32,000 nucleotides of DNA, from positions 5,341-37,340 of the forward strand of contig JAHBWD010000035.1 of the NCBI GenBank assembly GCA_019637175.1, written 5' to 3'. Position 1 is the stretch's first letter. Every line of letters begins with the position of its first letter. The DNA is from Labilithrix sp. (lineage in GTDB: Bacteria; Myxococcota_A; Polyangia; Polyangiales; Polyangiaceae). This document shows, in pieces, positions 2,517 to 24,427 of this stretch. Made by a program: the position numbers and the translations under genes. Below the pieces are notes generated by a model that saw nothing but the letters and a program-made list of their open reading frames with translations, was not told the origin of the DNA and made no database searches.

Positions 2517-3542
<1,026 letters not shown>

Positions 3543-3562
3543 GCTCGTCTCCTTCTCGCTGC

Positions 3563-6996: not shown

Positions 6997-7023
6997 CGAC
7001 CGCGAGCGTACACGATCGCGACC

Positions 7024-8385: not shown

Positions 8386-8390
8386 CTCGC

Positions 8391-11115: not shown

Positions 11116-11147
11116 GGGCCATGGCGTACGGCGCGAGGGCGACCGCG

Positions 11148-13202: not shown

Positions 13203-13249
13203 CGTCTCCCTATACTTCAGCGTCGGGGGTGCGCGAAGATGAGCTCGTG

Positions 13250-13918
13250 ATGCGCGCGATCGTCTTCTTCTCCCTCGCCTCGCTCGCCGTGCTCTTCGCC
13301 GCCTGCGGCGGAGGCAACCTCGGGCGCTGCACGCAGAGCAACCTTCGCGCGTGCCACGCGCGATGCGAGGCGGGCCACGGCGACGCCTGCGCGATCGCCG
13401 CGTACATCAAGGCCGACGACGAAGAGGCCGGCGAAAAATCGGCCGACGACCAACCCAAGGCGGCGGAGTACTTCCTCAAGAGCTGCCTCCACCGTCACGC
13501 CGTGGGCTGCTACGGCGCCGGCCTCACGTTCATCCTTCGACCGACCCCGAACCTCGAGATGGCGGCGCGCTCGTTCGAGGCCGGCTGCGCGCTCGGTCAC
13601 CTCGACTCGTGCGCGATGCGCTCGGCGTCCCACGAGATGGCGCACAACGAGAACCCCGAGGCGGCGTTCGCCGAGTACGACCGCACGTGCGCCGCGGGCA
13701 GCGCGGTCGGCTGCAGCCTCGCGGGCGATCGCCTCGTCGCGGGGCGCAACATGGCGCGCGACGAGGCGCTGGGCGCGCGCTTCCTCGCGCGCGCGTGCGA
13801 TCTCGGCGAGTCGTCGGCGTGCGAGCGGCTGAAGGCGCGAACGCAGAAGCTCTCGCCGATCGCGACCGACGGAGGCGCCGAGGCCGCCGCCGGCGACGCG
13901 AGCGTTCCCTCCGAATGA
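13250..13918 (+). CDS. Sel1-like / Hcp-type cysteine-rich repeat lipoprotein
   Basis: MRAIVFFSLASLAVLFAAC lipobox. Five repeats each carry paired Cys (e.g. FLKSCLHRHAVGC, FEAGCALGHLDSC, FLARACDLGESSAC). The listed start at 13229 is a GTG extension. Confidence 0.75.
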   Translation: MRAIVFFSLASLAVLFAACGGGNLGRCTQSNLRACHARCEAGHGDACAIAAYIKADDEEAGEKSADDQPKAAEYFLKSCLHRHAVGCYGAGLTFILRPTPNLEMAARSFEAGCALGHLDSCAMRSASHEMAHNENPEAAFAEYDRTCAAGSAVGCSLAGDRLVAGRNMARDEALGARFLARACDLGESSACERLKARTQKLSPIATDGGAEAAAGDASVPSE

Positions 13919-14024
13919 GCCTTGGCGAGAGAGCGCGGTAGCAGCGCGCACGAGCTTCCCAAGAATCTCGTTTGAAGCGTGTCTCATCGGAGCGTCGGAT
14001 CGATCACTTTCGTGATTTAAAACC

Positions 14025-14053
14025 TTGCGAAGGCCGAAACGGCGCGCTATAGC
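14025..14053 (+). promoter_or_regulatory. candidate sigma-70-type promoter (TTGCGA-N17-TATAGC)
   Basis: Hexamers with a 17-nt spacer read directly, in a locally AT-richer stretch. No experimental support. Confidence 0.3.
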
Positions 14054-14438
14054 TTGAATGCCGCTCCCGTCTGGAGCGTCGAAGAGCAGCAACCAGAACC
14101 TCCAGGAGGCCGCGGAAAGCCCGCGGTGACTGCCCCGTGATCCTCTCCCTTCAACGAACCTGTACGGAATCGCGAGCGCTGACGCGCTTGGCCGGTCTCC
14201 GTGCGGGCTTCGTGGGGCGAGGTCTTCGGCAGGCCTCGCTCCCGTGGCATCGGGCGTATCGCTCGCGCCTCGTCTCCGTCCCCGTCTTCGGCGGCAGCTC
14301 CGGTTTCATCACGAAGCCTGGGCGCCGCATGTCCACCCTCACCTCGATCTCGCTCGATCCGAGCGCGAATGCAGAGCAGGAGGGATCCCCCTAGCGGTCC
14401 TCGTACCATCTCCTTCACAGGGAGCAGGTGTCGAAAGG

Positions 14439-14467
14439 CCGCCCGGGGTTACCCCGAGGCGGTTTTC
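14439..14467 (+). terminator. hairpin plus short T-run (possible intrinsic terminator)
   Basis: ccgcccgggg-tta-ccccgaggcgg followed by tttt. Confidence 0.45.
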
Positions 14468-14757
14468 GTCGTTTCTGCCCCTCGATTTGCGGCGCCTTCC
14501 CAACGCCCAGCCCTAGACGGCTGGGCCCGGAGCGGCGCGGATCGGCGCCCTTGGCGCCCCATCGCGGTCGATCGCGCGGTCCTCTGGCCTCGCGCTCGCG
14601 CTCTGGACGGCAAGGGAGATCGCAGCCCGAAGGTCGGCGCCCCGCTCGGGGTTCGCCGAAACAGTACGAGTTTGTCTAGGAGAATCAATCATGCTTCTCA
14701 AGCTTGGAATCTAGTCATGAAGGCCCGACTCAAACGTAGTTCTTTCGTCCGCCACGC

Positions 14758-14831
14758 GGGACGCTAGCTCAATCGGAACGAGCACCGGGCTTTTACCCCG
14801 AGGGATGAGGGTTCGACTCCCTCGCGTCCCA
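14758..14831 (+). tRNA. tRNA-Lys(TTT)
   Basis: Acceptor gggacgc/gcgtccc. D stem gctc/gagc. Anticodon loop ctTTTac. T-loop ttcgact. No encoded CCA. Confidence 0.8.
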
Positions 14832-14887
14832 CAGCCTCCGTCCGTCTTCTCTCTCTCGTTCACGCGCTCTCACGAGCGCGCGATCGC

Positions 14888-14961
14888 GGGTCCGTAGCGC
14901 AACCGGCAAGCGCACTCGACTCTTAATCGAGGTGGTGAGGGTTCGAGTCCCTCCGGACCTA
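14888..14961 (+). tRNA. tRNA-Lys(CTT)
   Basis: Acceptor gggtccg/cggacct. Anticodon stem ctcga/tcgag, loop ctCTTaa. T-loop ttcgagt. Confidence 0.8.
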
Positions 14962-14984
14962 CGGGCGACGTCCGTCGCCGACAC

Positions 14985-15059
14985 TCCGGGATCGTCTAGC
15001 TGGCAGGACACTGGCCTCTGAACCCAGAAACACAGGTTCGAATCCTGTGCCCGGAACCA
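14985..15059 (+). tRNA. tRNA-Gln(CTG)
   Basis: Acceptor tccggga/gcccgga (7-66 mismatch). Loop ctCTGaa. T-loop ttcgaat. CCA encoded. Confidence 0.65.
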
Positions 15060-15163
15060 AGGCTCTCCTCTTTCGAGGGAGCCCTCGCTCTCTGAAAACT
15101 TGGCGCCAATCGACTCGTCCGCGCGCGCGGAGCGCGAGCTTCACGCTCGCGGGCGAGTCTCAT

Positions 15164-15236
15164 TCCAGCGAAGCCGAATGGTCAGGCAGCCGGCTGTTAA
15201 CCGGTCCCTTCGAAGGTTCGATTCCTTCCGCTGGAG
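15164..15236 (+). tRNA. tRNA-Asn(GTT)
   Basis: Acceptor tccagcg/cgctgga. Anticodon stem gccgg/ccggt, loop ctGTTaa. T-loop ttcgatt. Confidence 0.75.
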
Positions 15237-15239
15237 CTC

Positions 15240-15371
15240 TCGCCCTCTCGGCAGAGGCCCTACACGCACCTGGTGATGCTGGTTCGACTCCAGCCCACGG
15301 CTTCGGCCGCGGTCGTCCAACGGCAGGACCCCCGAATGTCAATCGGAACGACGGCTTCTCCACTCGGGCGA
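15240..15371 (+). ncRNA. structured module A: permuted tRNA-like RNA (candidate Y RNA)
   Basis: Closing stem tcgccc/gggcga. Box ccctacacgca at 15258-15268. The order is then: T-arm gctgg-ttcgact-ccagc; acceptor 3' strand ccacggc; ttcg loop; acceptor 5' strand gccgcgg; D-arm gtcc/ggac; hairpin with loop atGTCaa. Confidence 0.5.
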
Positions 15372-15376
15372 AAACT

Positions 15377-15447
15377 GCCCATGTAACTCGATGGTCGAGC
15401 ACCCGCCTCGTACGCGGTGTGAGCCGGTTCGACTCCGGACGTGGGCT
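15377..15447 (+). tRNA. tRNA-Thr(CGT)
   Basis: Acceptor gcccatg/cgtgggc. Loop ctCGTac. T-loop ttcgact. Confidence 0.7.
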
Positions 15448-15452
15448 CTCGT

Positions 15453-15618
15453 TTCATCCACCCGAACAGACCCTACACGCAAAAACAAAGTTGGTTCGAC
15501 TCCAACCGCCTACCCCGACGGCCCTGCAAGGCCGTCTCGCATCACGGTGGGCGTAGCCTAACGGTAAGGCAATCGTTTATTGGACGATAATCCCACCCGG
15601 TTTGCTCACTCGGATGGA
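15453..15618 (+). ncRNA. structured module B: permuted tRNA-like RNA (candidate Y RNA)
   Basis: Closing stem ttcatcc/ggatgga. Box ccctacacgca. T-arm gttgg-ttcgact-ccaac. An 8-bp acceptor-like stem cgcctacc/ggtgggcg is capped by a 31-nt insert containing its own hairpin. D-arm gcc/ggc. Hairpin atcgt-ttattgg-acgat. Confidence 0.5.
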
Positions 15619-15796
15619 ACGCATCCTCTCCCCGCCGCGTACGGCGGGTCCCCTTTCAATCCGGCCGCTATAACGTTGCGCCTCGCGCGCAGCCCCGCCG
15701 TCGGATCCTGCCCCGCCGCGAGCTTCGTCGGCGCGGGTCTCGTCTCATCAGGAGGCTGGCGCGTGAGCGCAAGCCGCGCCGCCTCCGACCTCTTCC

Positions 15797-15868
15797 GCCC
15801 ACGCAGCTCGAGAGCCGAGCGTCCTGGCTTGTACCCAGGAAGATCTGGTGCGACTCCAGACGTGGGCT
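15797..15868 (+). tRNA. tRNA-Thr(TGT), non-canonical elbow
   Basis: Acceptor gcccacg/cgtgggc. Anticodon stem cctgg/ccagg, loop ctTGTac. T-loop tgcgact (G55). D-loop gagagcc lacks GG. Confidence 0.6.
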
Positions 15869-15883
15869 CCGCCGAAATCCTCT

Positions 15884-15958
15884 ACCCCCGTCATCTAGCG
15901 GCAAGGAGCTCCGTCTTTCAATCGGAGGGCGTCGGTTCGAATCCGATCGGGGGTGCCA
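15884..15958 (+). tRNA. tRNA-Glu(TTC)
   Basis: Acceptor acccccg/cgggggt. Loop ctTTCaa. T-loop ttcgaat. CCA encoded. Weak D stem. Confidence 0.7.
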
Positions 15959-16034
15959 GGGCTGTGAGCTGGTCGCAGGATAGCGTCTGCCTGAAGAGCA
16001 GAAGAACGTGGTGCAAGCCCACGACAGCCCACCA
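15959..16034 (+). tRNA. tRNA-Phe(GAA)
   Basis: Starts directly after the preceding CCA. Acceptor gggctgt/acagccc. Anticodon stem tctgc/gcaga, loop ctGAAga. T-loop tgcaagc (G55). CCA encoded. Confidence 0.7.
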
Positions 16035-16116
16035 TCGAAAGCTCGATATCGTCGATATCGAAGAACGACGAACATCGCACTTGCAAAGTGAGGTAGCGAG
16101 ACACATATGAATGTAC

Positions 16117-16189
16117 GGTGGCGTTACTCGTCTAGTGACGAGGACTGGCCGTGACCCAGTGGAGGCGGGTGCAATCCCCGTACGTCACC
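16117..16189 (+). tRNA. tRNA-His(GTG) with G-1, C33 and G55
   Basis: G-1 lies opposite C73. Acceptor gtggcgt/acgtcac. Anticodon stem actgg/ccagt, loop ccGTGac. T-loop tgcaatc. D-loop tctagtga. Confidence 0.7.
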
Positions 16190-16326
16190 CCTCAGCCGCC
16201 GAGCTTCGTTCGGCGACTTCGTCCCTCTCTCGTGGGAGCTTCGCTCCCCTCATCGGCGAAGCCGATGAGCCTCCTCTCCTTCGCCTGCGGCGAAACCGAG
16301 CTTCGCTCGGCAGGAGAGGCATCCAG

Positions 16327-16398
16327 GTCCTCGTGGCCGAGCGGATAGGCAGCGGTTTCCTAAACCGCCACAGGCAGGTTCGAGTCCTGCCGGGGACG
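16327..16398 (+). tRNA. tRNA-Arg(CCT)
   Basis: Acceptor gtcctcg/cggggac. Anticodon stem gcggt/accgc, loop ttCCTaa. T-loop ttcgagt. Confidence 0.75.
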
Positions 16399-16423
16399 CG
16401 ACACGCAACGAAACGATTCTCAC

Positions 16424-16495
16424 GCCTCGTGATGCGCCCGGCGGCGCAACCCCACTGTCTATGGGACGAGACGGGTTCGACTCCCGTACGAGGCG
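16424..16495 (+). tRNA. tRNA-Asp(GTC)
   Basis: Acceptor gcctcgt/acgaggc. D stem tgcg/cgca. Loop ctGTCta. T-loop ttcgact. Confidence 0.75.
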
Positions 16496-16501
16496 CTGCA
16501 T

Positions 16502-16575
16502 GCGTCGCAGAGTCATGGTGACCGGCCGAGCCTCCAAAACTCGGAGAGAGGGTTCGATTCCTTCGCGACGTGCCA
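16502..16575 (+). tRNA. tRNA-Trp(CCA)
   Basis: Acceptor gcgtcgc/gcgacgt. Loop ctCCAaa with a 31-39 C-A mismatch. T-loop ttcgatt. CCA encoded. Poor D-arm. Confidence 0.65.
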
Positions 16576-16588
16576 GAGGTGACCGTTC

Positions 16589-16792
16589 ATGACGACCTGC
16601 ACCTTCTGCTCGGGCCCCGCGCATCCCTCCACGGGCTGCGTGTACGGACCGAGAACCCTCGCGTGCCGCGCGTGCACCGTCCGCTTCTGGACGTGGCTCC
16701 GCCAGCACGTGAACAAGGCTCCTCGCCGCCGCCCTGGCCGCGTGGTCCCTTCCCTCACGTTCTACGAGGCCGCCACGAAGTGGCGAGCCTAG
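16589..16792 (+). CDS. small Cys-rich (zinc-ribbon-like) hypothetical protein
   Basis: 67 aa. CxxC...C...CxxC pattern (CTFC, C17, CRAC). GAGGTG Shine-Dalgarno-like sequence about 8 nt upstream of the ATG. Sits between tRNA-Trp and tRNA-Ala. Confidence 0.55.
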   Translation: MTTCTFCSGPAHPSTGCVYGPRTLACRACTVRFWTWLRQHVNKAPRRRPGRVVPSLTFYEAATKWRA

Positions 16793-16816
16793 GCCGACGG
16801 ACCTCCGCGGCCATCT

Positions 16817-16890
16817 GGGGCGGTATTTCAATAGGAGAATTCTGCTCTCGCACAGCAGGGATCGGGGTGCAATTCCCCGTCGCTCCACCA
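16817..16890 (+). tRNA. tRNA-Ala(CGC)
   Basis: Acceptor ggggcgg/tcgctcc with G3-U70. Anticodon stem ctgct/agcag, loop ctCGCac. T-loop tgcaatt (G55). CCA encoded. Confidence 0.7.
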
Positions 16891-16902
16891 GACATCACGA
16901 AT

Positions 16903-16975
16903 GGGGTCGTAGCTCAGCCAGGAGAGCATCTCGATGGCATCGAGAAGGTTGCCGGTGCAATTCCGGTCGACTCCA
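16903..16975 (+). tRNA. tRNA-Ala(GGC)
   Basis: Acceptor ggggtcg/cgactcc with G3-U70. Anticodon stem tctcg/cgaga, loop atGGCat. T-loop tgcaatt (G55). Confidence 0.75.
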
Positions 16976-17003
16976 CGAAGTACATATTCACGAATACCCA
17001 TAC

Positions 17004-17078
17004 GCTGGCATCGTCCAAGAGTGAGGACCTCAGTCTTCCAAACTGATGATGAGGGTGCGAATCCCTCTGCCCGCTCCA
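17004..17078 (+). tRNA. tRNA-Gly(TCC)
   Basis: Acceptor gctggca/tgcccgc (3-70 mismatch). D stem gtcc/ggac with loop aagagtga. Loop ctTCCaa. T-loop tgcgaat (G55). U73 and CCA present. Confidence 0.7.
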
Positions 17079-17231
17079 CTCTCCTCTTCCCCTGCTCTTC
17101 TGGCCCCGGCGCGCTCCGCGCGACGGTTCGCCGAAGGCGAAAGGGGGGAGGACTCCACGCGCAGCGTGGAGGGGGGACGCAGTCCCCCACGAGACAGAAG
17201 GAAACGAGAGCGCGCAGCGCTCTCGCTTTTC

Positions 17232-17302
17232 GAGCCGATTCTCTGAGAGGTCCGTGGTCTGCAAAACCGCGTATGAGGGTTTGATTCCCTCTCGGCTCTC
17301 CA
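17232..17302 (+). tRNA. tRNA-Cys(GCA)
   Basis: Acceptor gagccga/tcggctc. Anticodon stem gtggt/accgc, loop ctGCAaa. T-loop tttgatt (U56). U73 and CCA present. Weak D-arm. Confidence 0.65.
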
Positions 17303-17322
17303 AAAAGGAAATCATGACGAGC

Positions 17323-17395
17323 GGATCACGACGGGATGGTTACCCTGGGCTCTCTGATAAGGAGCCTGCACCGTGTTCGATTCACGGGTGATCCA
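17323..17395 (+). tRNA. tRNA-Ile(GAT)
   Basis: Acceptor ggatcac/gtgatcc. D stem cggg/cctg. Loop ctGATaa. T-loop ttcgatt. Confidence 0.8.
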
Positions 17396-17415
17396 CGACG
17401 AGCTCCACGAGAGAT

Positions 17416-17488
17416 GCGGCGCTGGCGGTCTAGTGACTGCGCTTGCTCGACAAGCAGGAACAGGCGGGTGCGATCCCCGCGCGCCGTA
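17416..17488 (+). tRNA. tRNA-Val(GAC) with C33 and G55
   Basis: Acceptor gcggcgc/gcgccgt. D stem gcgg/ctgc with loop tctagtga. Anticodon stem cttgc/gcagg, loop tcGACaa. T-loop tgcgatc. Confidence 0.65.
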
Positions 17489-17495
17489 CCGAGAG

Positions 17496-17567
17496 CTGGG
17501 CATAGTTCAGAGGCCAGATCACTCCCCTCGGAAGGGAGAGACGGAGGTTCGAGTCCTCCTGCCCAGA
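17496..17567 (+). tRNA. tRNA-Pro(CGG)
   Basis: C1-G72 acceptor ctgggca/tgcccag. Anticodon stem ctccc/gggag, loop ctCGGaa. T-loop ttcgagt. A73. Confidence 0.8.
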
Positions 17568-17577
17568 CTGATTTCAC

Positions 17578-17650
17578 GCCGATGTAGCCCAATAGGCAGA
17601 GGTACCCGTCTCAGAAACGGGGGGTGAGGGTTCGAATCCCTCCTTCGGCA
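17578..17650 (+). tRNA. class-I (short variable loop) tRNA with Leu anticodon CAG
   Basis: Acceptor gccgatg/cttcggc (6-67 mismatch). D-arm gcccaataggcagagg. Anticodon stem cccgt/acggg, loop ctCAGaa. Only 4-5 nt variable region. T-loop ttcgaat. A73. Confidence 0.55.
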
Positions 17651-17666
17651 CTACGTCTCTCGAAAT

Positions 17667-17750
17667 GTCACCGTGGTGGAACGGCATACACACCAGCTTG
17701 AGGTGCTGGGCTCCCTACGGAGTGTGAGGGTTCGAATCCCTCCGGTGACA
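17667..17750 (+). tRNA. tRNA-Leu(GAG), class II
   Basis: Acceptor gtcaccg/cggtgac. Anticodon stem ccagc/gctgg, loop ttGAGgt. Long variable arm ctcc-ctac-ggag. T-loop ttcgaat. Confidence 0.8.
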
Positions 17751-17843
17751 CTACTGGCGCGCGCATCCCCGAAACGACTCTTCTCTGCTGATCCCGAACC
17801 TTGCTCCTCGAAGGAGATGAAAGTGAAAAAGCGAAGGTGACCC

Positions 17844-18377
17844 ATGCAAACGCTGATGCTGACCCCGTGGATGGCGCCGCACAAGATCATCTCGTGGCAA
17901 CGCGCCGTCGTTCTCGCGTACCTCGGCAAGGTCGAGGTCATCGAGACTTGGGACTGCGATCTCCGCGGCCCCAGCGTCTCGATGAAGGCGCCGTCCGTCG
18001 TGCGTCTCACGAAGGGGTCGGTCTCGACGAAGCAGTCGGTGCGCTTCTCGCGCATCAACGTCTTCACGCGTGACAAGTTCCGCTGCCAGTACTGCGGCGA
18101 GCGGAAGCCCATCAAGCAACTGAACTACGACCACGTGATCCCGCGCGTGCGCGGCGGAAAGACGGTCTGGGAGAACATCGTCACTTCCTGCTACGCGTGC
18201 AACGATCGCAAGGGGAGCCGCACTCCCGAGGAGGCCGGCATGAAGCTGCTCCGCAAGCCGCTCAAGCCGGACACCCTCCCCGTGGTGCCGCCGATCCGCC
18301 TCGACGAGGGTGACCTGCCCGAGCAATGGGAGCCGTACTGCGGCGACCTGGCTCGGCTGATGTCCCTCTCGGCGTGA
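17844..18377 (+). CDS. HNH endonuclease (small McrA-like family)
   Basis: 177 aa. CQYCG...YDHVIPRVRGGKTVWENIVTSCYACNDRK, an HNH/ββα-Me motif with two CxxC pairs. AAGGTGA Shine-Dalgarno upstream of the ATG. Confidence 0.85.
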   Translation: MQTLMLTPWMAPHKIISWQRAVVLAYLGKVEVIETWDCDLRGPSVSMKAPSVVRLTKGSVSTKQSVRFSRINVFTRDKFRCQYCGERKPIKQLNYDHVIPRVRGGKTVWENIVTSCYACNDRKGSRTPEEAGMKLLRKPLKPDTLPVVPPIRLDEGDLPEQWEPYCGDLARLMSLSA

Positions 18378-18460
18378 AAGCGCTGCGCCCGTCATCCGAC
18401 GTGCGCTCCCGCGTCCTGGCCCAAGACGAAATAAACTGGGCCTCCTATTCTTCAAACGAT

Positions 18461-18535
18461 CAGGGCGTAGCTTAGCCTGGCAAAAGCGTCAGTCTGGGGG
18501 ACTGAAGAGCGCAGGTTCGAATCCTGCCGTCCTGA
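18461..18535 (+). tRNA. tRNA-Pro(GGG)
   Basis: Acceptor cagggcg/cgtcctg. D stem gctt/aagc. Anticodon stem tcagt/actga, loop ctGGGgg. T-loop ttcgaat. Confidence 0.8.
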
Positions 18536-18548
18536 CTACGTCGATATC

Positions 18549-18631
18549 GGAAGGTACATCCGCGAGGCGCGGAGATCGCCTGGAACGCGATTCGCACCGC
18601 CAGGTGCGAGGTTCGAGTCCTCTGCCTTCCT
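18549..18631 (+). tRNA. tRNA-Ser(GGA), class II
   Basis: Acceptor ggaaggt/gccttcc. Anticodon stem atcgc/gcgat, loop ctGGAac. Variable arm cacc-gcca-ggtg. T-loop ttcgagt. Confidence 0.7.
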
Positions 18632-18656
18632 CTGCTCTCGACTGCATCCTCGAAAC

Positions 18657-18741
18657 GGAAGAGAAACTGGCTGGGAGCCAGGACTGCCTCGAAAGCAGTA
18701 CGCACCTTCACGGGTGTGGGGTTCGAGACCTCTCTCTTCCT
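18657..18741 (+). tRNA. tRNA-Ser(CGA), class II
   Basis: Acceptor ggaagag/ctcttcc. D stem ctgg/ccag. Anticodon stem actgc/gcagt, loop ctCGAaa. Long variable arm. T-loop ttcgaga. Confidence 0.7.
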
Positions 18742-18758
18742 CTCTCGCCTCTCTTTTT

Positions 18759-18831
18759 CTCCTTGCTGGTGGCTCCAGGCATTGGTCTACGAAGCCGATT
18801 TTCCCAGGTTCGATTCCTGGCAGGGAGACCA
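18759..18831 (+). pseudogene. degenerate tRNA-like element (anticodon arm not foldable)
   Basis: Good acceptor ctccttg/cagggag, T-arm ccagg-ttcgatt-cctgg and CCA. The anticodon arm pairs poorly and the variable region is only 2-3 nt. Confidence 0.4.
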
Positions 18832-18838
18832 ACGATTT

Positions 18839-18973
18839 CGATCGCCCATCCCGAACGTGCCTACAAGCAACCGTCCTGAAAAGACGGGGAACACGAAACG
18901 TCCGAGCCCTCGAAGCGTCGAGCGCTCCGACGTTTCGTGATCCCTCCCAACGCACGATCGACTCGGGCGATCG
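18839..18973 (+). ncRNA. structured module C (box-containing, no T-arm)
   Basis: 9-bp closing stem cgatcgccc/gggcgatcg. atcccgaac plus box cctacaagcaa. Anticodon-arm-like hairpin ccgtc-ctgaaaa-gacgg. A 15-bp hairpin at 18892-18939. Confidence 0.45.
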
Positions 18974-18980
18974 CAAAAAT

Positions 18981-19053
18981 ACCTTCGTCCTGGCGGAATC
19001 CAGGCGCGAGCCTCCGAAGCTCGTTGCTCCCGGTTCGACTCCGGGCGGAGGTG
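18981..19053 (+). tRNA. tRNA-Arg(CCG)
   Basis: Acceptor accttcg/cggaggt. D stem ctgg/ccag with a 6-nt loop. Anticodon stem cgagc/gctcg, loop ctCCGaa. T-loop ttcgact. Confidence 0.7.
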
Positions 19054-19057
19054 CTGA

Positions 19058-19132
19058 CGCAGCGTGGGGGAGGAGCGACCCCGCGAGGTTCATGTCCTCG
19101 AGACGCCGGTGCGACTCCGGCCGCTGCTACCA
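19058..19132 (+). tRNA. tRNA-Met(CAT), 1-72 mismatch (initiator-like?)
   Basis: Acceptor cgcagcg/cgctgct with C1 opposite U72. D stem gggg/cccc. Anticodon stem cgagg/cctcg, loop ttCATgt. T-loop tgcgact (G55). CCA encoded. Confidence 0.65.
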
Positions 19133-19134
19133 AG

Positions 19135-19262
19135 GTCATCCAAATACGCCGAGCCTACACGCAACTTGATTCGTCCAATGGATAGGACATCAGCCTCCTA
19201 AGCTGAGCGTCTGGGTTCGAGTCCCAGATCAACCCCCCTCGCGCTCGTCGATCTCGGATGAC
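19135..19262 (+). ncRNA. structured module D: box plus normal-order tRNA-Arg(CCT)-like core (candidate Y RNA)
   Basis: Perfect 7-bp closing stem gtcatcc/ggatgac. Box cctacacgcaa abuts position 3 of a tRNA-like core at 19164-19235 (D stem gtcc/ggac, loop ctCCTaa, T-arm ctggg-ttcgagt-cccag). The core retains only 5 acceptor base pairs. Confidence 0.5.
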
Positions 19263-19270
19263 CTTCCTAT

Positions 19271-19347
19271 GTTTCCGTCGTCTAGACGGCCAAGGACACC
19301 CGCCTCTCAAGTGGGTAACACGGGTTCGAATCCCGTCGGAAACGCCA
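19271..19347 (+). tRNA. tRNA-Glu(CTC)
   Basis: Acceptor gtttccg/cggaaac. Anticodon stem cccgc/gtggg, loop ctCTCaa. T-loop ttcgaat. CCA encoded. Confidence 0.8.
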
Positions 19348-19392
19348 AACCCCAACATCCACGCCCACCACTGGCCCAGAAAGGAGAGAACC

Positions 19393-20982
19393 ATGGCAAA
19401 CAAGCAGCTATTCGCGAGCCCGCGACCGGACGCCGTCAACGAAGCCGGCGGCTTGGCCTACGCGTTCTCTCCCGAGCACGCGCTCGCCCAGTACGCCGCG
19501 ACCGGCACGTTCCACGGGACGTTCTACGCCAGCGACAAAGAGCAGCTCGATCGCGTGTCCGCGTTTGCCAGCGCGTGCTCGCCCGAGCTCGTCGCCAAGA
19601 CCGCCGTCTACTGTCGCGAGCGCGGCAGGATGAAGGACATGCCGGCGTTCCTCGTCGCCCACCTCGCGGCCCGCGACACCGCGATGATGAGCCGGGTGTT
19701 CGCTCGGGTCATCGACGACGGCGTCATGCTCCGCAACTTCGTGCAGATCGTCCGCTCGGGCGTCACCGGCCGAAAGTCGTTCGGCTCGGCCCCCAAGCGC
19801 GCGCTCCGTGCGTGGTTCGCGAGCCGCTCGCCCGACGCGATTTTTCGTCAGTCCATCGGTCAGAGCCCGTCCATGTCGGACGTCATCAAGATGGTTCGCC
19901 CTCCCCCGCGGAACGACAAGGGCGAAGCCGATGCCGTTCGTGAGGCCCTCTACGGCTACCTCATCGGAAAGAACGTGGATCCGGACAAGCTCCCCGCGCT
20001 CGCGCGCGCCTTCGAGGCGTGGAAGCGCAGGACCGGCGGCCTGCCCGACGTGCCCTTCGAGATGCTCACCTCGCTCCCCTTGAGCGCGGAAGACTGGAAG
20101 GCGCTCGCGCGTCGGATGACGACGAATCAGCTCCGGATCAACCTCAACACGCTCCTCCGTCACGGCGTCCTCGACGACCCCGAGATGGTGGACTCCGTGG
20201 CGGCCCGCCTGTCGGACCGCGAGGCGATCCTCCGGGCGCGCATGATGCCGTTCCAGCTCCTCGCCGCGTATCGCGGCGTCGAGGCGCGGATGCCGACGCG
20301 CATCGTCACGGCGATCGCGACGGCGCTCGAGCACGCGGTGTCGAACGTCCCCGAGCTCGTCGGGCGCGTCGTGCTCTGCCCCGACGTGTCGGGATCGATG
20401 CAGTCGCCCGTGACGGGTCACCGCGGGAGCGCGACCACGAAGGTGCGCTGCGTCGACGTCGCGGCCCTCGTGACCGCGGCGATCCTCCGGAAGAACCCGG
20501 GCTCGTCGGTCATTCCGTTCTCCGACGACGTGGTCCCGATGACGAAGCCTCTCGATCCGGGCGGCTCGATCGTCGAGAACGCGGAGATCCTCGCGAGCCT
20601 CCCGAGCGGCGGCACCGCTTGCTCGGCGCCGCTCCGCTGGCTCAACGCGAACGGGAACGCGCCCGACGTCGTCGTCTTCGTCTCGGACAACCAGTCGTGG
20701 TCGGACTTCCGACACCCTTCGCGATCCGCCACGAGCGGCACCGCGATGGCGGAGGAGTGGCAACGCCTTCGGGGCAGGAACCCGAACGCCAAGCTGATCC
20801 TCGTCGACGTCCAGCCCTACGGCACGACGCAGAGCACCTCGCGCGACGCCAAGGGCGAGCGCGACGACGTGCTCGACGTCGGCGGGTTCTCCGACGCGGT
20901 CTTCGACGTCGTCGCGTCGTTCACGCGCGGCGAGCTCGGCGGAGACACGTGGCTTCGCGCGATCGAATCGATCGCGCTCTAG
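19393..20982 (+). CDS. rsr: Ro60-related TROVE-domain / vWA protein (Rsr)
   Basis: 529 aa from MANKQLFAS. The N-terminus is TROVE-like (NEAGGLAYAFSPEHALAQYAATGTFHGTFY). C-terminal vWA MIDAS motif CPDVSGSM. AAGGAGAG Shine-Dalgarno at 19381-19388. Confidence 0.85.
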   Translation: MANKQLFASPRPDAVNEAGGLAYAFSPEHALAQYAATGTFHGTFYASDKEQLDRVSAFASACSPELVAKTAVYCRERGRMKDMPAFLVAHLAARDTAMMSRVFARVIDDGVMLRNFVQIVRSGVTGRKSFGSAPKRALRAWFASRSPDAIFRQSIGQSPSMSDVIKMVRPPPRNDKGEADAVREALYGYLIGKNVDPDKLPALARAFEAWKRRTGGLPDVPFEMLTSLPLSAEDWKALARRMTTNQLRINLNTLLRHGVLDDPEMVDSVAARLSDREAILRARMMPFQLLAAYRGVEARMPTRIVTAIATALEHAVSNVPELVGRVVLCPDVSGSMQSPVTGHRGSATTKVRCVDVAALVTAAILRKNPGSSVIPFSDDVVPMTKPLDPGGSIVENAEILASLPSGGTACSAPLRWLNANGNAPDVVVFVSDNQSWSDFRHPSRSATSGTAMAEEWQRLRGRNPNAKLILVDVQPYGTTQSTSRDAKGERDDVLDVGGFSDAVFDVVASFTRGELGGDTWLRAIESIAL

Positions 20983-21061
20983 CGATCGAGACAACGCGGC
21001 AAATGCCCGCGAGGGTTACATCCTCGGGAAAACCACCTTCGCGACCTTCGTTGCCGCCCTT

Positions 21062-21117
21062 GCTCCTCCTCACGAAAGGTCTTCACGGGAGCTCATTGAG
21101 GAGGAGCCATTCTTTTT
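21062..21117 (+). terminator. hairpin plus T-run downstream of rsr
   Basis: 11-bp stem gctcctcctca/tgaggaggagc with a 24-nt loop, followed by cattcttttt. The next tRNA starts 2 nt later. Confidence 0.6.
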
Positions 21118-21118
21118 C

Positions 21119-21191
21119 GCCGTCCACGCCCAGAGAGCGGGGCACCTCACTGGTAGCGAGGACAAGGAGGGTGCGAGTCCCTCGGACGGCT
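21119..21191 (+). tRNA. tRNA-Thr(GGT)
   Basis: Acceptor gccgtcc/ggacggc. D stem gccc/gggc with loop agagagcg. Loop ctGGTag. T-loop tgcgagt (G55). Confidence 0.7.
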
Positions 21192-21202
21192 CGAATCGTT
21201 TT

Positions 21203-21276
21203 GCGGTGATAGTTCAAGAGTAGAACCTGAGCACGCCACGCTCGAAATCCGGGTGCGATTCCCGGTCACCGCTCCA
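21203..21276 (+). tRNA. tRNA-Gly(GCC) with C33 and G55
   Basis: Acceptor gcggtga/tcaccgc. D stem gttc/gaac with loop aagagta. Anticodon stem tgagc/gctcg, loop acGCCac. T-loop tgcgatt. U73 and CCA present. Confidence 0.65.
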
Positions 21277-21339
21277 GCGCCGAGTCCCCTGCCGTTCACC
21301 GGAGAAGGTGTCGTCGGGGGGCCACGCGCTTCCACTCTT

Positions 21340-21412
21340 CGCTGCGCTCCTGGGCAGGACGACGGGCTTCATATGCCTGCGCGCGACGGCTCGACTCCGT
21401 CCGCAGCGACCA
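21340..21412 (+). tRNA. tRNA-Met/Ile2(CAT), aberrant D-arm
   Basis: Acceptor cgctgcg/cgcagcg. Anticodon stem cgggc/gcctg, loop ttCATat. T-loop ctcgact (C54). CCA encoded. The D region is only 14 nt. Confidence 0.55.
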
Positions 21413-21418
21413 CGACAT

Positions 21419-21490
21419 ACCGGAGTGTTCCAAGGGCAGGATCGGCGGCTTTGAACCGCTCGAGTGGGGGTTCGAATCCCTCCTCCGGTG
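21419..21490 (+). tRNA. tRNA-Gln(TTG)
   Basis: Acceptor accggag/ctccggt. Anticodon stem ggcgg/ccgct, loop ctTTGaa. T-loop ttcgaat. Confidence 0.75.
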
Positions 21491-21497
21491 CGAACGC

Positions 21498-21573
21498 GCG
21501 GGGCGCGCCGTCTGGCGACGGCATCTGCATCACAAGCAGCGCAAGGAGAGTTCGATCCTCTCGCCCCGTACCA
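21498..21573 (+). tRNA. tRNA-Val(CAC)
   Basis: Acceptor gcggggc/gccccgt. D stem gccg/cggc. Loop atCACaa. T-loop ttcgatc. CCA encoded. Confidence 0.75.
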
Positions 21574-21595
21574 CGAATGGAAGATTGGTCTTCGA

Positions 21596-21671
21596 GTCGA
21601 CGTAGCCCAACGGCAGAGGCAGCACGCTCAAACCGTGCGTGATGGGGGTTCGAATCCCTCGGTCGACACCA
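21596..21671 (+). tRNA. class-I (short variable loop) tRNA with Leu anticodon CAA
   Basis: Acceptor gtcgacg/ggtcgac (7-66 mismatch). D-arm gcccaacggcagaggc. Anticodon stem gcacg/cgtgc, loop ctCAAac. 5-nt variable loop. T-loop ttcgaat. A73 and CCA present. Confidence 0.55.
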
Positions 21672-21813
21672 TGGGTTCGAATCCCATGAAGCACCTCGCG
21701 AGGACGCCGGCGCGTCACGCGGAAGCCTCGAGCAGCGGCCTGTTACGCCGCACACGCTCGAGGGCCTTCTCCGCGCGACGTCCGCTCGTCGTTTCCGCAG
21801 CGAGATCCGCTTG

Positions 21814-21956
21814 CTGGTTGCCAGTCGCGCGACTGAAACTCGTGCACGTGTTTGACGCAGGTTCGAATCCTGTCGCCCGCACCGCTCGCTCGCGCGAGCC
21901 CTCCGAAATCATGCGGGCGTAGCTCAGCTAGGTAGAGCAACAGACTGTTAATCTGA
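21814..21956 (+). ncRNA. module E: third permuted tRNA-like locus
   Basis: The order is: hairpin cgcga-ctgaaac-tcgtg; T-arm gcagg-ttcgaat-cctgt; 3' strand cgcccgc; 32-nt cap; perfectly complementary 5' strand gcgggcg; D-arm gctc/gagc; hairpin acaga-ctgttaa-tctga. Confidence 0.4.
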
Positions 21957-22215
21957 AAACGAAGTCGGCGAAGGAAGTCACCCCCCTCTCGAGAGAGAGG
22001 CGCGCTCCCGTCCCGCGATCGAAGCCGCCCTGCCGCAGCTCCGCGGTCGTCCCTCGAAGACCACCGCGAAGCGCCGGCCGACGCCCCTCGATCGCTCGCC
22101 GGCGAGCACGTCGCCCGAACGTGATGGCTTCGAGGCGTTCACGTTCTTGGGTGCCTTCCTTCGAAGGCTCTCCTCCTTCTCTTCTCTTCTCATCTCCTCC
22201 AAGAGGCCACCCACC

Positions 22216-23352
22216 ATGATGAAGATTCTGTTCGTGGATCTCGACGAGCGCGTCGTGGTCCTCCGTCGTGGCCTCCCGGTTCGTGCCCTCGGACCTGGTC
22301 GCCACATCCTGTGGGGCTTCGGCATCACCGAGCGTCGGTGGTCGACCGCGCCCCTCGTGTTCGAGATGCAGCCCGCGCTCCGCGCCGCGCTGCCGCCCGA
22401 CTCTTTCCACGAGATCACGCTCACGCCGAGCGAGCGCGCGATCCTCTGGCGCGACGGCCGTCCCAAGGTCTTCCTCGGCCCCGGCGTCCACCGGTACTGG
22501 GAGGTCGACGACCCGCTCCACGCGCAGGTCATGTCGGTCCACGACGAGATGCCCGAGCTCTCCGCCGAGCTCGCGTCGATCATCCCGCGCGACCAGTACG
22601 TCGAGGTCACCGTGCAAGAGCACCAGCGCGGCCTCCTCCACGTGAAGGGCAAGCTCGCCCGGACGCTCGCGCCCGGTCGCTACACCTTCTGGTCGACGCG
22701 CGAGTCGCCCGTCGCCGTCCAGAGCGTCGACATGCGCGTCGTGCAAGCCACGATCGCGGGCCAGGAGCTCATGACCAAGGACAAGGTCACGCTCCGGCTC
22801 ACCCTCACGGTCGAGTACGCCGTCGAGGATCCGGCCGTCGCCACCCACGCGGTGGAGAACGTCCGCGACGCGATCTACCTGCTCGTCCAGCTCGCCAGCC
22901 GCGAGTTCGTCGCCGGCGTGACGCTCGACGACCTGCTCGCCGGCCGCGACGCGATGACGAAGTACCTCGAGGACGACGTCGCTGGAAAGGCGCGTCGCTT
23001 CGGCGTGCGCGTCGAGCGCGTCGGCGTGAAGGACGTCGTGCTCCCGGGCGAGATGAAGACGCTCCTCAACAAGGTCATCGAGGCCGAGAAGGAAGCGGCC
23101 GCGAACGTCATCCTCCGTCGTGAGGAGACGGCCGCGACGCGCTCTCTGGCGAACACCGCCAAGCTCATGGCCGAGCAGCCGCTGCTCCTGCGGCTGAAGG
23201 AGCTCGACTCGCTCAAGGAGATGGCGGCGAAGATCCACGAGATCAAGCTCGTGGCCTTCGCTCCGGGCATGAACGCGTCGGGCATGAACGCGCTCGTGCC
23301 CTCGGGCTTCCTCGGCCCTGGCCCGGAGGCCTCCTCCAAGGGAGAGGCGTGA
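22216..23352 (+). CDS. SPFH/band-7 (slipin-like) domain protein
   Basis: 378 aa from MMKILFVDL. Central SPFH pattern (TKDKVTLRLTLTVEY...GVRVERVGVKDVVLP) followed by a coiled-coil-like tail. AAGAGG lies upstream. Confidence 0.8.
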   Translation: MMKILFVDLDERVVVLRRGLPVRALGPGRHILWGFGITERRWSTAPLVFEMQPALRAALPPDSFHEITLTPSERAILWRDGRPKVFLGPGVHRYWEVDDPLHAQVMSVHDEMPELSAELASIIPRDQYVEVTVQEHQRGLLHVKGKLARTLAPGRYTFWSTRESPVAVQSVDMRVVQATIAGQELMTKDKVTLRLTLTVEYAVEDPAVATHAVENVRDAIYLLVQLASREFVAGVTLDDLLAGRDAMTKYLEDDVAGKARRFGVRVERVGVKDVVLPGEMKTLLNKVIEAEKEAAANVILRREETAATRSLANTAKLMAEQPLLLRLKELDSLKEMAAKIHEIKLVAFAPGMNASGMNALVPSGFLGPGPEASSKGEA

Positions 23353-23362
23353 CACGTGAACG

Positions 23363-23399
23363 GCCGGGATCTTCTGAAAAGAAAATCCCGGCGTTCTTT
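23363..23399 (+). terminator. hairpin plus T-rich tail after the SPFH gene
   Basis: gccgggat...atcccggc stem followed by gttcttt. Confidence 0.55.
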
Positions 23400-23533
23400 G
23401 GAAGTCAGACCGCAGAGGTTGCGGGCCCGGTTGCTACCCGGTGCGTACCCGAGTCGTTCGGGTATGGCGTTCGAGTCGCCTGATTTCCGCTCGATTTCGA
23501 CGTTCGGCGCCAAGTCTTCGGAGACGCTCGACT

Positions 23534-23621
23534 GGATCGGACGCGGTACTGGCTGGCCGCACGTGGCTGTAACCCACGTTCTTTCACGACACTGGGGGTT
23601 CGAATCCCTCCCGATCCACCA
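23534..23621 (+). tRNA. tRNA-Tyr(GTA), class II
   Basis: Acceptor ggatcgg/ccgatcc. D stem gcgg/ccgc. Anticodon stem cgtgg/ccacg, loop ctGTAac. Long variable region. T-loop ttcgaat. A73 and CCA present. Confidence 0.85.
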
Positions 23622-23665
23622 CACAATTTAGGTCCGAGGGCCCCTGGCGGATTACACTCGACGCC

Positions 23666-24427
23666 ATGAAGAAGGAGGCCCTGCGCGTCACTGCGACAAT
23701 CCCCGTGGCGCCCACGACGCTCTACTTCGCCTGGATCGACAGCGCGCATCACTCCGCGATGACGGGCGGCACCGCGAAGATCGATCCCAACGTCGGCGCC
23801 AAGTTCACGGCGTGGAACGGGTACATCACGGGAAAGCTCGTGATCCTCGACCTCGGCCGGCGCATCGTCATGAGCTGGCGAACGTCGGACTTCCCGCGCG
23901 ACGCTTCGGATTCGCGCGTCGAGGTCCACTTCGAATCGCTCGGCACGAGCACGCGCATCCTCATCCTGCACACCGAGATCCCGGAGGGTCAGGCGGAGCA
24001 GTACAAGCAGGGTTGGATGGAGAAGTACGTCAACCCGATGCGCGTCTACTTCAGTAAGTATCTGCCCGATCCGCGCAATCCTCCGCCGCGCCGCATCCCG
24101 CCGCCGCCGCCGGACGACGAGGAGGAAGAAGAAGAGGAGGCGCCGAAGGCCAAGGGCAAGAAGGCCCCGCCGACGAAGCCCGTCGTCAAGGGCAAGGCGC
24201 CTTCGCCGAGCGTGGCGAAGGTCGCGCCGGCCAAGCCTGCCGCCAAGCCGGCCGCGAAGCCCGCGCCGAAGCCCGCCGCCAAGCCCGCGCCGAAGCCTGC
24301 CGCCAAGCCCGCGCCGAAGAAGAGCGCGCCGGCGAAGAAGCCCGCGGCCAAGCCCGCGCCGAAGAAGGCCGCCAAGCCCGCGCCGAAAAAGAGCGCACCG
24401 GCGAAGAAGCCGGCGAAGAAGAAGTAG
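23666..24427 (+). CDS. SRPBCC (Aha1/START-like) domain protein with Lys/Ala/Pro-rich histone-H1-like tail
   Basis: The N-terminal ~135 aa are SRPBCC-like. These are followed by a PPPPP-DDEEEEEEE linker and (AKPAPK/AKKPA)n repeats. Confidence 0.75.
   Translation: MKKEALRVTATIPVAPTTLYFAWIDSAHHSAMTGGTAKIDPNVGAKFTAWNGYITGKLVILDLGRRIVMSWRTSDFPRDASDSRVEVHFESLGTSTRILILHTEIPEGQAEQYKQGWMEKYVNPMRVYFSKYLPDPRNPPPRRIPPPPPDDEEEEEEEAPKAKGKKAPPTKPVVKGKAPSPSVAKVAPAKPAAKPAAKPAPKPAAKPAPKPAAKPAPKKSAPAKKPAAKPAPKKAAKPAPKKSAPAKKPAKKK

Follow-up and report, generated by a model that had tools for sequence, protein, structure and literature searches.

The window analysed here is a stretch of 32,000 nucleotides from Labilithrix sp. 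(assembly GCA_019637175.1, contig JAHBWD010000035.1, positions 5,341 to 37,340) and carries a dense block of tRNA genes, among which lie genes for an HNH endonuclease, for an orthologue of Ro60 (rsr) and for an SPFH/Band-7 protein. The block holds 36 tRNA genes in 8864 bases (14758–23621; 4.1 per kb), every one on the plus strand, together with the HNH gene, rsr and four Y-RNA-like genes of one family, and a module made up of a further Y-like RNA, Y-c, and the Band-7 gene, all in the same orientation. The tRNA genes carry 35 different anticodons for all 20 amino acids and CAT alone occurs twice. An earlier reading from the sequence alone (the original prediction) had described about 34 genes with 33 anticodons; its coordinates, strand, gene order and full amino-acid representation stand, as does the duplication of CAT only, but its list lacks tRNA-Arg(ACG) at 18755 and tRNA-Ser(GCT) at 23400. 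Position 34 is G or C in 29 of the 35 anticodons, the dominance that had been claimed, and CCA is encoded by 15 of the 36 genes (42%), roughly the half that had been estimated. The array has the at least 20 tRNA genes and the density of at least two per kb that define the 'tRNA array units' of Tran et al. (2016; PMC4758250), a term also used by Morgado and Vicente (2018; PMC5966550); long arrays are further described in PMC6515697. It also shows the features of an 'L-array' (Santamaria-Gomez et al., 2021; PMC8421152): a single orientation, tRNAs close enough for co-transcription and an anticodon order with no periodic repeat. It is a chromosomal long tRNA array of a soil myxobacterium of the Labilithrix clade.

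Several lines of evidence define the gene set. Default ARAGORN recovers not a handful but 31 genes in the window, all called on the plus strand from 14758 to 23621. With the Rfam tRNA model, 21 of the ARAGORN-called tRNAs score at or above the gathering threshold, and the model adds Phe-GAA (15959) and Ala-GGC (16903), and ARAGORN with relaxed thresholds adds His-GTG, Trp-CCA, the second CAT gene and Ser-GCT. The last of these (23400–23490) folds as a class II cloverleaf with a long variable arm (fold z = -3.66). Thr-GGT (21121–21193) is called by neither program in the window and folds as a cloverleaf with a single A-C mismatch; its positional orthologues in two related loci, L002 and L005, are called by ARAGORN. 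The L-numbers denote loci compared with the window, for the most part the best 80 retained from a scan, with an Rsr alignment, of one genome per species. Two ARAGORN calls were rejected as tRNAs: 'Asn-ATT' (15546–15638) is part of the Y-like RNA Y-b, and a second 'Arg-CCT' (19164–19237) lies within Y-d and has two unpaired acceptor positions.

With both ARAGORN and Rfam as evidence unless otherwise indicated, the array opens with Lys-TTT (14758–14832; Rfam 61.5 bits), Lys-CTT (14888–14962; 67 bits), Gln-CTG (14985–15059), Asn-GTT (15164–15237), Thr-CGT (15377–15448), Thr-TGT (15797–15870; ARAGORN), Glu-TTC (15884–15958), Phe-GAA (15959–16034; Rfam 44 bits, relaxed ARAGORN), His-GTG (16117–16191; relaxed ARAGORN and cloverleaf fold), Arg-CCT (16327–16399), Asp-GTC (16424–16496; ARAGORN) and Trp-CCA (16502–16575; relaxed ARAGORN, with orthologues called in L002, L004 and L005). 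The next run comprises Ala-CGC (16817–16890), Ala-GGC (16903–16976; Rfam 57.8 bits), Gly-TCC (17004–17078), Cys-GCA (17232–17302), Ile-GAT (17323–17396; ARAGORN), Val-GAC (17416–17490; ARAGORN), Pro-CGG (17496–17568), Leu-CAG (17578–17651) and Leu-GAG (17667–17751). Between the HNH gene and rsr lie Pro-GGG (18461–18536), Ser-GGA (18549–18632) and Ser-CGA (18657–18742), both by ARAGORN, Arg-ACG (18755–18831; ARAGORN, Rfam 26.7 bits, orthologues in L002, L004, L005 and L012), Arg-CCG (18981–19054; ARAGORN), Met-CAT (19058–19132), which has an initiator-like C1xU72 mismatch, and Glu-CTC (19271–19347). Downstream of rsr are Thr-GGT, Gly-GCC (21203–21276), the second CAT gene (21340–21412; Met or Ile2, with a short D arm; relaxed ARAGORN, fold and orthologues), Gln-TTG (21419–21491), Val-CAC (21498–21573; ARAGORN) and Leu-CAA (21596–21671), and after the Band-7 gene the block closes with Ser-GCT and Tyr-GTA (23534–23621; class II). 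CCA is encoded in Gln-CTG, Glu-TTC, Phe-GAA, Trp-CCA, Ala-CGC, Gly-TCC, Cys-GCA, Arg-ACG, Met-CAT, Glu-CTC, Gly-GCC, the second CAT gene, Val-CAC, Leu-CAA and Tyr-GTA. The 241-nt spacer between Trp-CCA and Ala-CGC (16576–16816) had been taken for a small coding sequence, for which no confirmation was obtained: it gives no Pfam match, and in the comparison with L002 both of its strands prove conserved. The spacer, absent from L004, where the gap is 60 nt, may hold a small open reading frame (ORF) or a further noncoding RNA.

Pfam searches confirm the three embedded protein genes that had been recognized earlier. The HNH endonuclease gene (17844–18377, plus strand; 177 amino acids) matches HNH_5 (3.7e-17) and HNH (2.2e-15), and its best phage matches are in Myxococcus phage Mx1 and other large phages. 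The gene rsr (19393–20982, plus strand; 529 amino acids) has its true start at 19393, after a good ribosome-binding site (AAAGGAGAG), and encodes a TROVE domain (PF05731; 4.6e-06) followed by a vWA domain (vWA_Ro60, PF25045; 1.4e-18). The protein matches Deinococcus radiodurans Rsr (PDB entry 2NVO) over its full length (residues 15–515, E = 3e-21) and shows 100% identity to one encoded on an 87-kb contig of a Labilithrix sp. metagenome-assembled genome. The SPFH/Band-7 gene (22147–23352, plus strand; Band_7 6e-30) is an ORF of 401 amino acids; because its homologues have about 370 amino acids, the true start is suggested to lie about 30 codons further in. Homologues of this protein are common, and none was found in phage genomes at 1e-5.

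Five structured Y-RNA-like genes, unseen in the original prediction, lie between the tRNA genes, again on the plus strand. Y-a (15240–15371) exactly fills the gap between Asn-GTT and Thr-CGT and consists of a terminal stem (UCGCCC/GGGCGA), a T arm, a UUCG-capped acceptor-like stem and a D arm, which together resemble a permuted tRNA. Its consensus fold, built from orthologues and paralogues of L004, L005 and L012, has a long terminal stem, a T arm, an acceptor-like stem with a short loop and a D arm, with compensatory changes in 13 of 35 pairs; the acceptor-like stem differs in sequence from copy to copy while its pairing stays constant. As modelled, the layout of this consensus is that of YrlA, a permuted tRNA-like domain on a stem. 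A covariance model built on the Y-a alignment (R1), to which Y-a as a training member scores 120 bits, was then used for searching. Y-b (15450–15622), a paralogue of Y-a outside the training set, matches R1 over its full length (87.7 bits) and has a fold z of -3.65, a terminal stem of 10 bp and, in a structural scan, seven of seven acceptor pairs. Y-e (18838–18976; fold z = -7.7) gives a full-length R1 match of 23.2 bits and has a 9-bp terminal stem (CGAUCGCCC/GGGCGAUCG) and the family motifs, with no tRNA-like module. Y-d (19132–19265; fold z = -4.0) encloses a tRNA-like domain (19164–19237), in which five of seven acceptor pairs are formed, within a 9-bp terminal stem (AGGUCAUCC/GGAUGACCU), and a repeat, D19, connects its 5' strand with that of Y-b. 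Y-d and Y-e have in common a 5' motif, CCUACA(C/A)GCAA, and a 3' motif, CUCGG(G/A)(C/U)G. A tRNA-like domain is thus present in four of the five Y-like RNAs, and the long spacers of the array and its two odd tRNA-like units are explained because the Y RNAs lie there.

Searches with R1 gave two to four full-length paralogues per Labilithrix-clade array and, in other phyla, full-length matches immediately after rsr, which tie the family to classical YrlA. Many partial matches (model positions 47–118) were discarded as junctions between tandem tRNAs. Tandem tRNAs can mimic permuted YrlA-like units, as Chen et al. (2014; PMC4201824) warned. A scan of all loci for the permuted order (T arm, 3' acceptor, loop, complementary 5' acceptor, D arm) found 79 matches on the rsr strand, a few of them tandem paralogous tRNAs and hence artefacts, versus 0 on the opposite strand; most lie just downstream of rsr. 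Y-a, Y-b and Y-c have six to eight complementary acceptor pairs and no complete tRNA on either side of the junction, and the acceptor stems of the permuted units covary among orthologues. Candidate cognate Y RNAs are present on the same strand near rsr: those upstream are Y-e and Y-d, at under 600 nt from the gene, and Y-a and Y-b, some 4 kb away, and Y-c follows the gene after about 850 nt. Because Y-c (41.8 bits) and Y-a (25.1 bits) score below the gathering score of Rfam YrlA (RF02553; 69 bits), they are named only 'YrlA-like'. The Rfam YrlA model found nothing above E = 0.5 in L004 and L005, whose Y RNAs emerged only with R1.

Y-c (21829–21971) stands apart from this family. It is the best Rfam YrlA match in the window (E = 1e-6), lacks the motifs of the other four Y-like RNAs, and is a permuted tRNA-like RNA in the order T arm, acceptor stem (CGCCCGC/GCGGGCG), D arm and anticodon-like arm. 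Among the arrays, the SPFH gene occurs only in the window and in L002, which also supplies the sole close homologue of Y-c. Two further loci, L088 (from the same metagenome-assembled genome as L005) and L089, are stand-alone Band-7 loci with no tRNA genes. In the window, L002, L088 and L089 alike, a YrlA-like RNA lies about 300 nt upstream of the Band-7 gene on the same strand, and the four RNAs align, with compensatory changes in 9 of 23 pairs. Since RNA and Band-7 gene are paired at the tRNA-free loci, they can be regarded as a pair in its own right, which in the lineage of the window and L002 became inserted into the array. Judging by this linkage, Y-c would belong with the downstream Band-7 gene, in a two-gene module separate from the Rsr set. 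No RtcB domain was found in the scanned ORFs of the window or in the called genes of L088 and L089.

Under standard wobble rules the 35 anticodons read 53 of the 61 sense codons, and these make up 99.1% of the codons in the window's genes (63 of 7221 are unread). The eight unread sense codons all end in A, and because genes of the window use these codons, other tRNA genes must exist. The anticodon set fits a GC-rich host and is almost but not quite self-sufficient. When the window tRNAs were compared with their orthologues in seven arrays, 1796 stem pairs were unchanged, 372 had changed on both sides and 134 on one side with pairing kept, and 54 were broken; the counts took in ARAGORN-recognized tRNAs only and are therefore biased toward intact stems. 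The 372 compensatory changes against 54 broken pairs bear the mark of selection for the cloverleaf and, with the conserved site described below, indicate that the array is old and under selection, neither a recent insert nor a relic. Identity elements are also retained, namely G3:U70 in both Ala tRNAs and an encoded G-1 (16117) with C73 in tRNA-His.

The elbow of part of the set is unusual. In ten tRNAs, those starting at 15797, 15959, 16117, 16817, 16903, 17004, 17416, 19058, 21121 and 21203, the near-universal U55 is replaced by G55 (T-loop TGCGA or TGCAA); the other 26 of the 36 have a canonical elbow. Across the myxobacterial arrays with such tRNAs (the window, L002, L004, L005, L012, L008, L009, L011 and L006), the D-loop GG is present in 130 of 136 U55 tRNAs versus 10 of 44 G55 tRNAs, and the remaining G55 tRNAs carry AG(U/C/A)(G/A)A instead. 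G55 is kept in orthologues, for example in Gly-GCC across eight genomes, and was absent from the acidobacterial-array tRNAs and phage tRNAs examined. On this covariation, G55 with loss of GG looks like an alternative D-loop/T-loop elbow. Bacterial tRNA-Leu normally has a long variable arm. Leu-GAG retains one (class II, 85 nt), whereas Leu-CAG (74 nt) and Leu-CAA (76 nt) lack it. Short Leu tRNAs recur in the acidobacterial arrays L030, L037, L065 and L069 and in the phage clusters L001 (Mx1) and L082.

The array occupies an ordinary chromosomal setting. On its left are genes for PLD, RecA and ComM proteins and then a ketosynthase/ACP/GcvT-like/amine-oxidase block; on its right are genes for AHSA1, M18 aminopeptidase, FIST, FGE-sulfatase and Ser/Thr kinase proteins. 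The GC content is 61–65% in the array versus about 70–73% in the flanks. In agreement with the earlier statement that no integrase or att duplication is visible, Pfam searches of the window's ORFs found no integrase, recombinase, phage structural or conjugation gene, and the direct repeats detected around the array, in a search for att-like ones, either derive from tRNAs or belong to the coding sequence of the AHSA1 gene. The ORFs that precede the arrays of the window, L005 and L012 are ordinary cellular genes in which Pfam detected no ligase, kinase-phosphatase, regulator or integrase, and the ORFs around the acidobacterial arrays gave the same outcome; families found in array-adjoining ORFs were EamA, AAA ATPase, ABC transporter, methyltransferase and cytochrome c. 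In the sister genomes L002, L004, L005 and L012, whose Rsr proteins are 61–82% identical to that of the window, the array is found at the same site, with 21–33 tRNAs in the same order as in the window, ComM/RecA on one side and AHSA1 and M18 aminopeptidase on the other. These common flanks and this common order indicate that the array has been inherited at a fixed site within the Labilithrix clade. The horizontal acquisition that had been proposed is not supported as a recent event; an ancient transfer of the array, or exchange with phages, is likely. More widely in the Polyangia, the rsr-HNH pair is constant and the tRNAs around it number from 2 to 37 (L086, L007, L014, L015 and L087), with few at the pair in Pendulispora brunnea (complete genome; 2), L007 (2), L014 (7) and L087 (11). 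The cultured P. brunnea (L086; CP089982, 657101–678681) has the minimal form: tRNA-Asp, rsr, HNH, tRNA-Pro. Because these relatives have only 2–11 tRNAs at rsr-HNH, the housekeeping tRNAs of the group are argued to lie elsewhere.

Rsr within co-oriented arrays of at least ten tRNAs was found at 19 of the 80 loci. Eight of the 19 are from Myxococcota and one is from a 'Proteobacteria' metagenome-assembled genome (L025); the others are from two acidobacterial lineages, Pyrinomonadaceae (L020, L030, L041, L065, L068, L069, L075 and L080) and Bryobacterales (L029 and L037). In a neighbour-joining tree of Rsr the array carriers form several distinct clades in agreement with taxonomy, and the phage proteins branch outside these. 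An HNH homologue occurs in every array-bearing locus and, among loci with no tRNA called, only in L035. Arrays are thus present in three distant bacterial lineages and in phages, variable in size among the Polyangia and syntenic in the Labilithrix clade. The closest phage relatives of the window Rsr and HNH proteins are those of Mx1 (OR576727, L001; 43.6% and 42% identical, respectively), which has 31 tRNAs, and a 183-kb IMG/VR contig (UViG_3300034782_000062, L083) encodes an Rsr 46% identical to that of the window within 32 tRNAs and a transfer-messenger RNA (tmRNA; 3411–3774). Streptomyces phage MulchMansion (MT897905), a member of the BE cluster, combines tRNAs with two HNH genes and with proteins of the Ro-like and band-7-like kinds; the gene for the latter is an analogue of the window SPFH gene by position only. 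The acidobacterial arrays differ among themselves in CCA encoding, which is found in nearly every tRNA of L020 (12/12), L029 (23/24), L037 (27/27), L041 (16/16) and L065 (24/26) and in 5–6 of 24–32 (about a fifth to a quarter) in their sisters L030, L068, L069 and L080.

These comparisons place the array among several known systems. With long arrays it has in common more than 20 tRNA genes at more than two per kb, a single orientation, the absence of periodicity, about 20 amino acids, an embedded HNH gene, mixed CCA encoding, atypical tRNA features and phage counterparts. Unlike published L-arrays, it belongs to Myxococcota, with related arrays in Acidobacteriota, a phylum listed among those with accretive arrays only (PMC8421152). 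It also sits at one clade-inherited chromosomal locus rather than being scattered, has a nearly redundancy-free anticodon set, and contains Rsr, several Y RNA genes and a Band-7/YrlA-like module among its tRNAs. Among the protein genes that known arrays contain, HNH is the most frequent (PMC5966550, PMC12803027). The long-array literature searched does not mention Rsr, TROVE or Y RNA, and a search combining tRNA arrays with Ro60/Y RNA topics turned up only phage genome announcements. As in Rsr/YrlA systems (Chen et al., 2014, PMC4201824; Wang et al., 2018, bioRxiv 10.1101/312249), such as the Salmonella rsr-yrlBA-rtcBA operon, a TROVE and vWA protein is accompanied by nearby same-strand Y RNA genes, several paralogues to a locus, whose products have a terminal stem and a tRNA-like domain of T arm, acceptor and D arm. 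In contrast to them, the Y RNA genes of the window are set among genuine tRNA genes, at distances from rsr of up to 4 kb; RtcB, RtcA and RtcR are absent from the window; and the Y-a/Y-b/Y-d/Y-e family has its own motifs (CCUACACGCAA and CUCGGNNGA), scores below threshold for Rfam YrlA, and includes one member with a non-permuted tRNA-like core and one with no core.

Burroughs and Aravind are said to have predicted in 2016 that Band-7/SPFH proteins with a tRNA-like noncoding RNA ('b7a-tRNA') act as RNA-repair scaffolds. The window module likewise has a tRNA-like RNA just upstream of a Band-7 gene on the same strand, a pairing found in unrelated contexts (L088 and L089); it differs in having no adjacent RtcB and in lying, in the lineage of the window and L002 only, inside a tRNA array near Rsr. 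A preprint (bioRxiv 10.1101/312249), citing that work, proposes both Rsr/YrlA and Band-7 with a tRNA-like RNA as RNA-repair cofactors, and the literature notes that YrlA occasionally adjoins a Band-7 protein. Large-phage tRNA clusters, too, have dozens of co-oriented tRNAs mixed with HNH and a Ro-like protein, but they are looser, with many small ORFs between the tRNAs, they lack G55 elbows and any detectable homologue of the window SPFH protein, and the window array is not surrounded by phage genes. The earlier suggestion that the embedding of Ro60, HNH and SPFH genes is unprecedented was too strong, since HNH is common in arrays, Mx1 combines tRNAs with HNH and Ro60, and MulchMansion adds a band-7-like protein. 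Each of the three has precedent beside tRNAs or tRNA-like RNAs, and one annotated phage has all three. The apparent novelties are the chromosomal, clade-conserved array in Myxococcota with its related acidobacterial arrays, the interleaving of several Y RNA genes with tRNA genes, the presence of both proposed RNA-repair scaffolds within one tRNA block, and the repeated association of Rsr with arrays across phyla.

From its anatomy, its conservation and the analogy with these systems, the array is best read as a backup tRNA supply coupled to RNA surveillance, an account that we consider reasonably probable. The block would be transcribed as one or a few long precursors, from which tRNA-processing enzymes would release the tRNAs and Y RNAs. 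The tRNAs would form a near-complete spare decoding set, tuned to the codon usage of a GC-rich host, that could sustain translation once the housekeeping tRNAs are depleted or cleaved, be it during general translational stress or through the anticodon nucleases of toxin-antitoxin systems, competitors or phages. Two scaffolds, one formed by Rsr and its Y RNAs and the other by Band-7 and its tRNA-like RNA, may pass damaged or misfolded tRNA or rRNA to degradation or repair enzymes encoded elsewhere, and HNH would be a homing-type endonuclease travelling with such arrays. A backup role, for example in tolerating tRNA-targeting nucleases or stress, had been proposed originally, and this part of the proposal is in keeping with all of the findings and with the literature (PMC8421152, PMC12803027, PMC7824862). 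The Anabaena L-array is induced by translational stress, gives a survival benefit and shares its regulation with rtcB and an HNH gene (PMC8421152), arrays have been described as putative anti-defence systems (PMC12803027), and the tRNAs and TROVE proteins of jumbo phages have been read as counters to tRNA-cleaving host immunity (PMC7824862).

Several observations weigh against a backup supply coupled to surveillance. Neither the window nor the neighbourhood of the acidobacterial arrays examined encodes RtcB, PNPase or another effector, so that the repair or degradation step is one that we purely infer. A sigma-70 scan of 13900–24000 gave no promoter-like site, although myxobacterial promoters may not fit the consensus used; terminator-like sites in the same interval were at chance level, with no convincing internal terminator on the plus strand. 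The stem-pair counts favour intact stems by their construction. Finally, because ten tRNAs have G55 and two Leu tRNAs lack the long variable arm, these members may be translation substrates of poor quality.

Four other explanations were weighed. That the array tRNAs are mainly non-decoding, serving as sponges for tRNA-cleaving toxins or as sensors or substrates of Rsr and Band-7, with G55 marking a separate pool, would account for the linkage of G55 to the loss of GG (10/44 versus 130/136) as a distinct, selected elbow geometry, for the recurrence of short-arm Leu tRNAs in arrays and phages and for the tRNA-like domain in four of the five Y-like RNAs, and a sponge role has been suggested for the Anabaena array tRNAs (PMC8421152). 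Yet non-redundant anticodons that track codon usage, together with kept identity elements, are what selection for decoding is expected to give, a decoy needs no 35 anticodons and 26 of 36 elbows are canonical, so that we regard this explanation as unlikely. Somewhat less credible is that the block is cargo of a still-active mobile element (a prophage, an integrative and conjugative element or a homing cassette) that provides anti-defence for the element rather than the host. The embedded homing-type HNH endonuclease, the variation from 2 to 37 tRNAs around rsr-HNH and the occurrence of the architecture in phages and unrelated phyla would suit such cargo; but the window lacks integrase, recombinase, phage structural and conjugation genes and flanking direct repeats, its cellular flanking genes are common to four related genomes, and the Rsr tree tracks host taxonomy inside each clade.

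We give still less weight to the array being the normal clustered housekeeping set, with Rsr, HNH and Band-7 present by accident of organization. Against its 20 amino acids with almost no redundancy, its reading of 99.1% of the window's codon usage and its conservation at one locus in the clade stand the eight used sense codons (63 occurrences) that it cannot read, the close relatives that keep just 2–11 tRNAs at rsr-HNH, the ten non-canonical elbows, the same architecture in phages and the supernumerary nature of published L-arrays (PMC8421152, PMC12803027); this makes it very unlikely. Least probable of the four is that the block is what an old phage or mobile-element insertion left behind, an inert relic now useless to the cell. 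A relic is suggested by the nearest phage relatives of Rsr and HNH lying in phage tRNA clusters, by a GC content below that of the flanks and by degenerate units, namely the Thr-GGT mismatch and an Arg-CCT-like unit with a bad acceptor stem. The latter, however, sits in a well-folded Y-like RNA, gene order and position have been kept though the Rsr proteins are only 61–82% identical, and compensatory changes in the stems far outnumber broken pairs; the tRNA identity elements are kept, the anticodons match the codon usage of the GC-rich host and the Y RNA paralogues are conserved with covariation.

A bolder form of the backup-supply reading can be offered tentatively, as a rather doubtful conjecture: soil bacteria and large phages might have in common a single co-transcribed, self-contained translation-rescue system, in which Y RNAs cut from the precursor of the tRNAs would, through their tRNA-like domains, couple Rsr or Band-7 to tRNA handling and the sub-pool with the conserved G55/no-GG elbow would escape an attacker or enzyme that reads the elbow. 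If true, bacterial Ro60 and its Y RNAs would have a definite task, that of guarding the tRNA pool. The roles of bacterial Ro60 and its tRNA-mimicking Y RNAs, and those of long tRNA arrays, are both unsettled, and here the two are physically interleaved. That this interleaving recurs in three bacterial lineages and in large phages, with a second predicted RNA-repair scaffold, Band-7, in the same block, speaks strongly for an action of all three on the tRNA pool. The findings extend long arrays to Myxococcota and Acidobacteriota and provide concrete objects for experimental work: defined candidates for Y RNAs, 36 tRNAs forming a non-redundant set, and a natural series of 2 to 37 tRNAs around the same rsr-HNH pair, with the minimal form in the cultured P. 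brunnea.

Some smaller features of the neighbourhood may be added. The ketosynthase/ACP/GcvT-like/amine-oxidase block (5170–14700) is an insertion that separates ComM from the array in the window. In L004, L005 and L012 no such block occupies this position, and ComM is 1–3 kb away from the tRNA that opens the array; immediately before that tRNA, the three loci have a conserved ORF of about 120 amino acids (L012, 3137–3499; L005, 3260–3637; L004, about 2190–2520), which has no known domain and no counterpart in the window. In L004, a permuted 'tmRNA*' called by ARAGORN at 5467–6065 overlaps tRNA-Ala and is probably spurious. On the other side of the window array, the AHSA1-domain gene (23666–24427) contains tandem 12- and 24-nt repeats at 24211–24420, which encode a Lys/Ala/Pro-rich tail (AKPAAKPA...) resembling the DNA-binding tails of the histone H1 type, fused to the AHSA1/SRPBCC domain.

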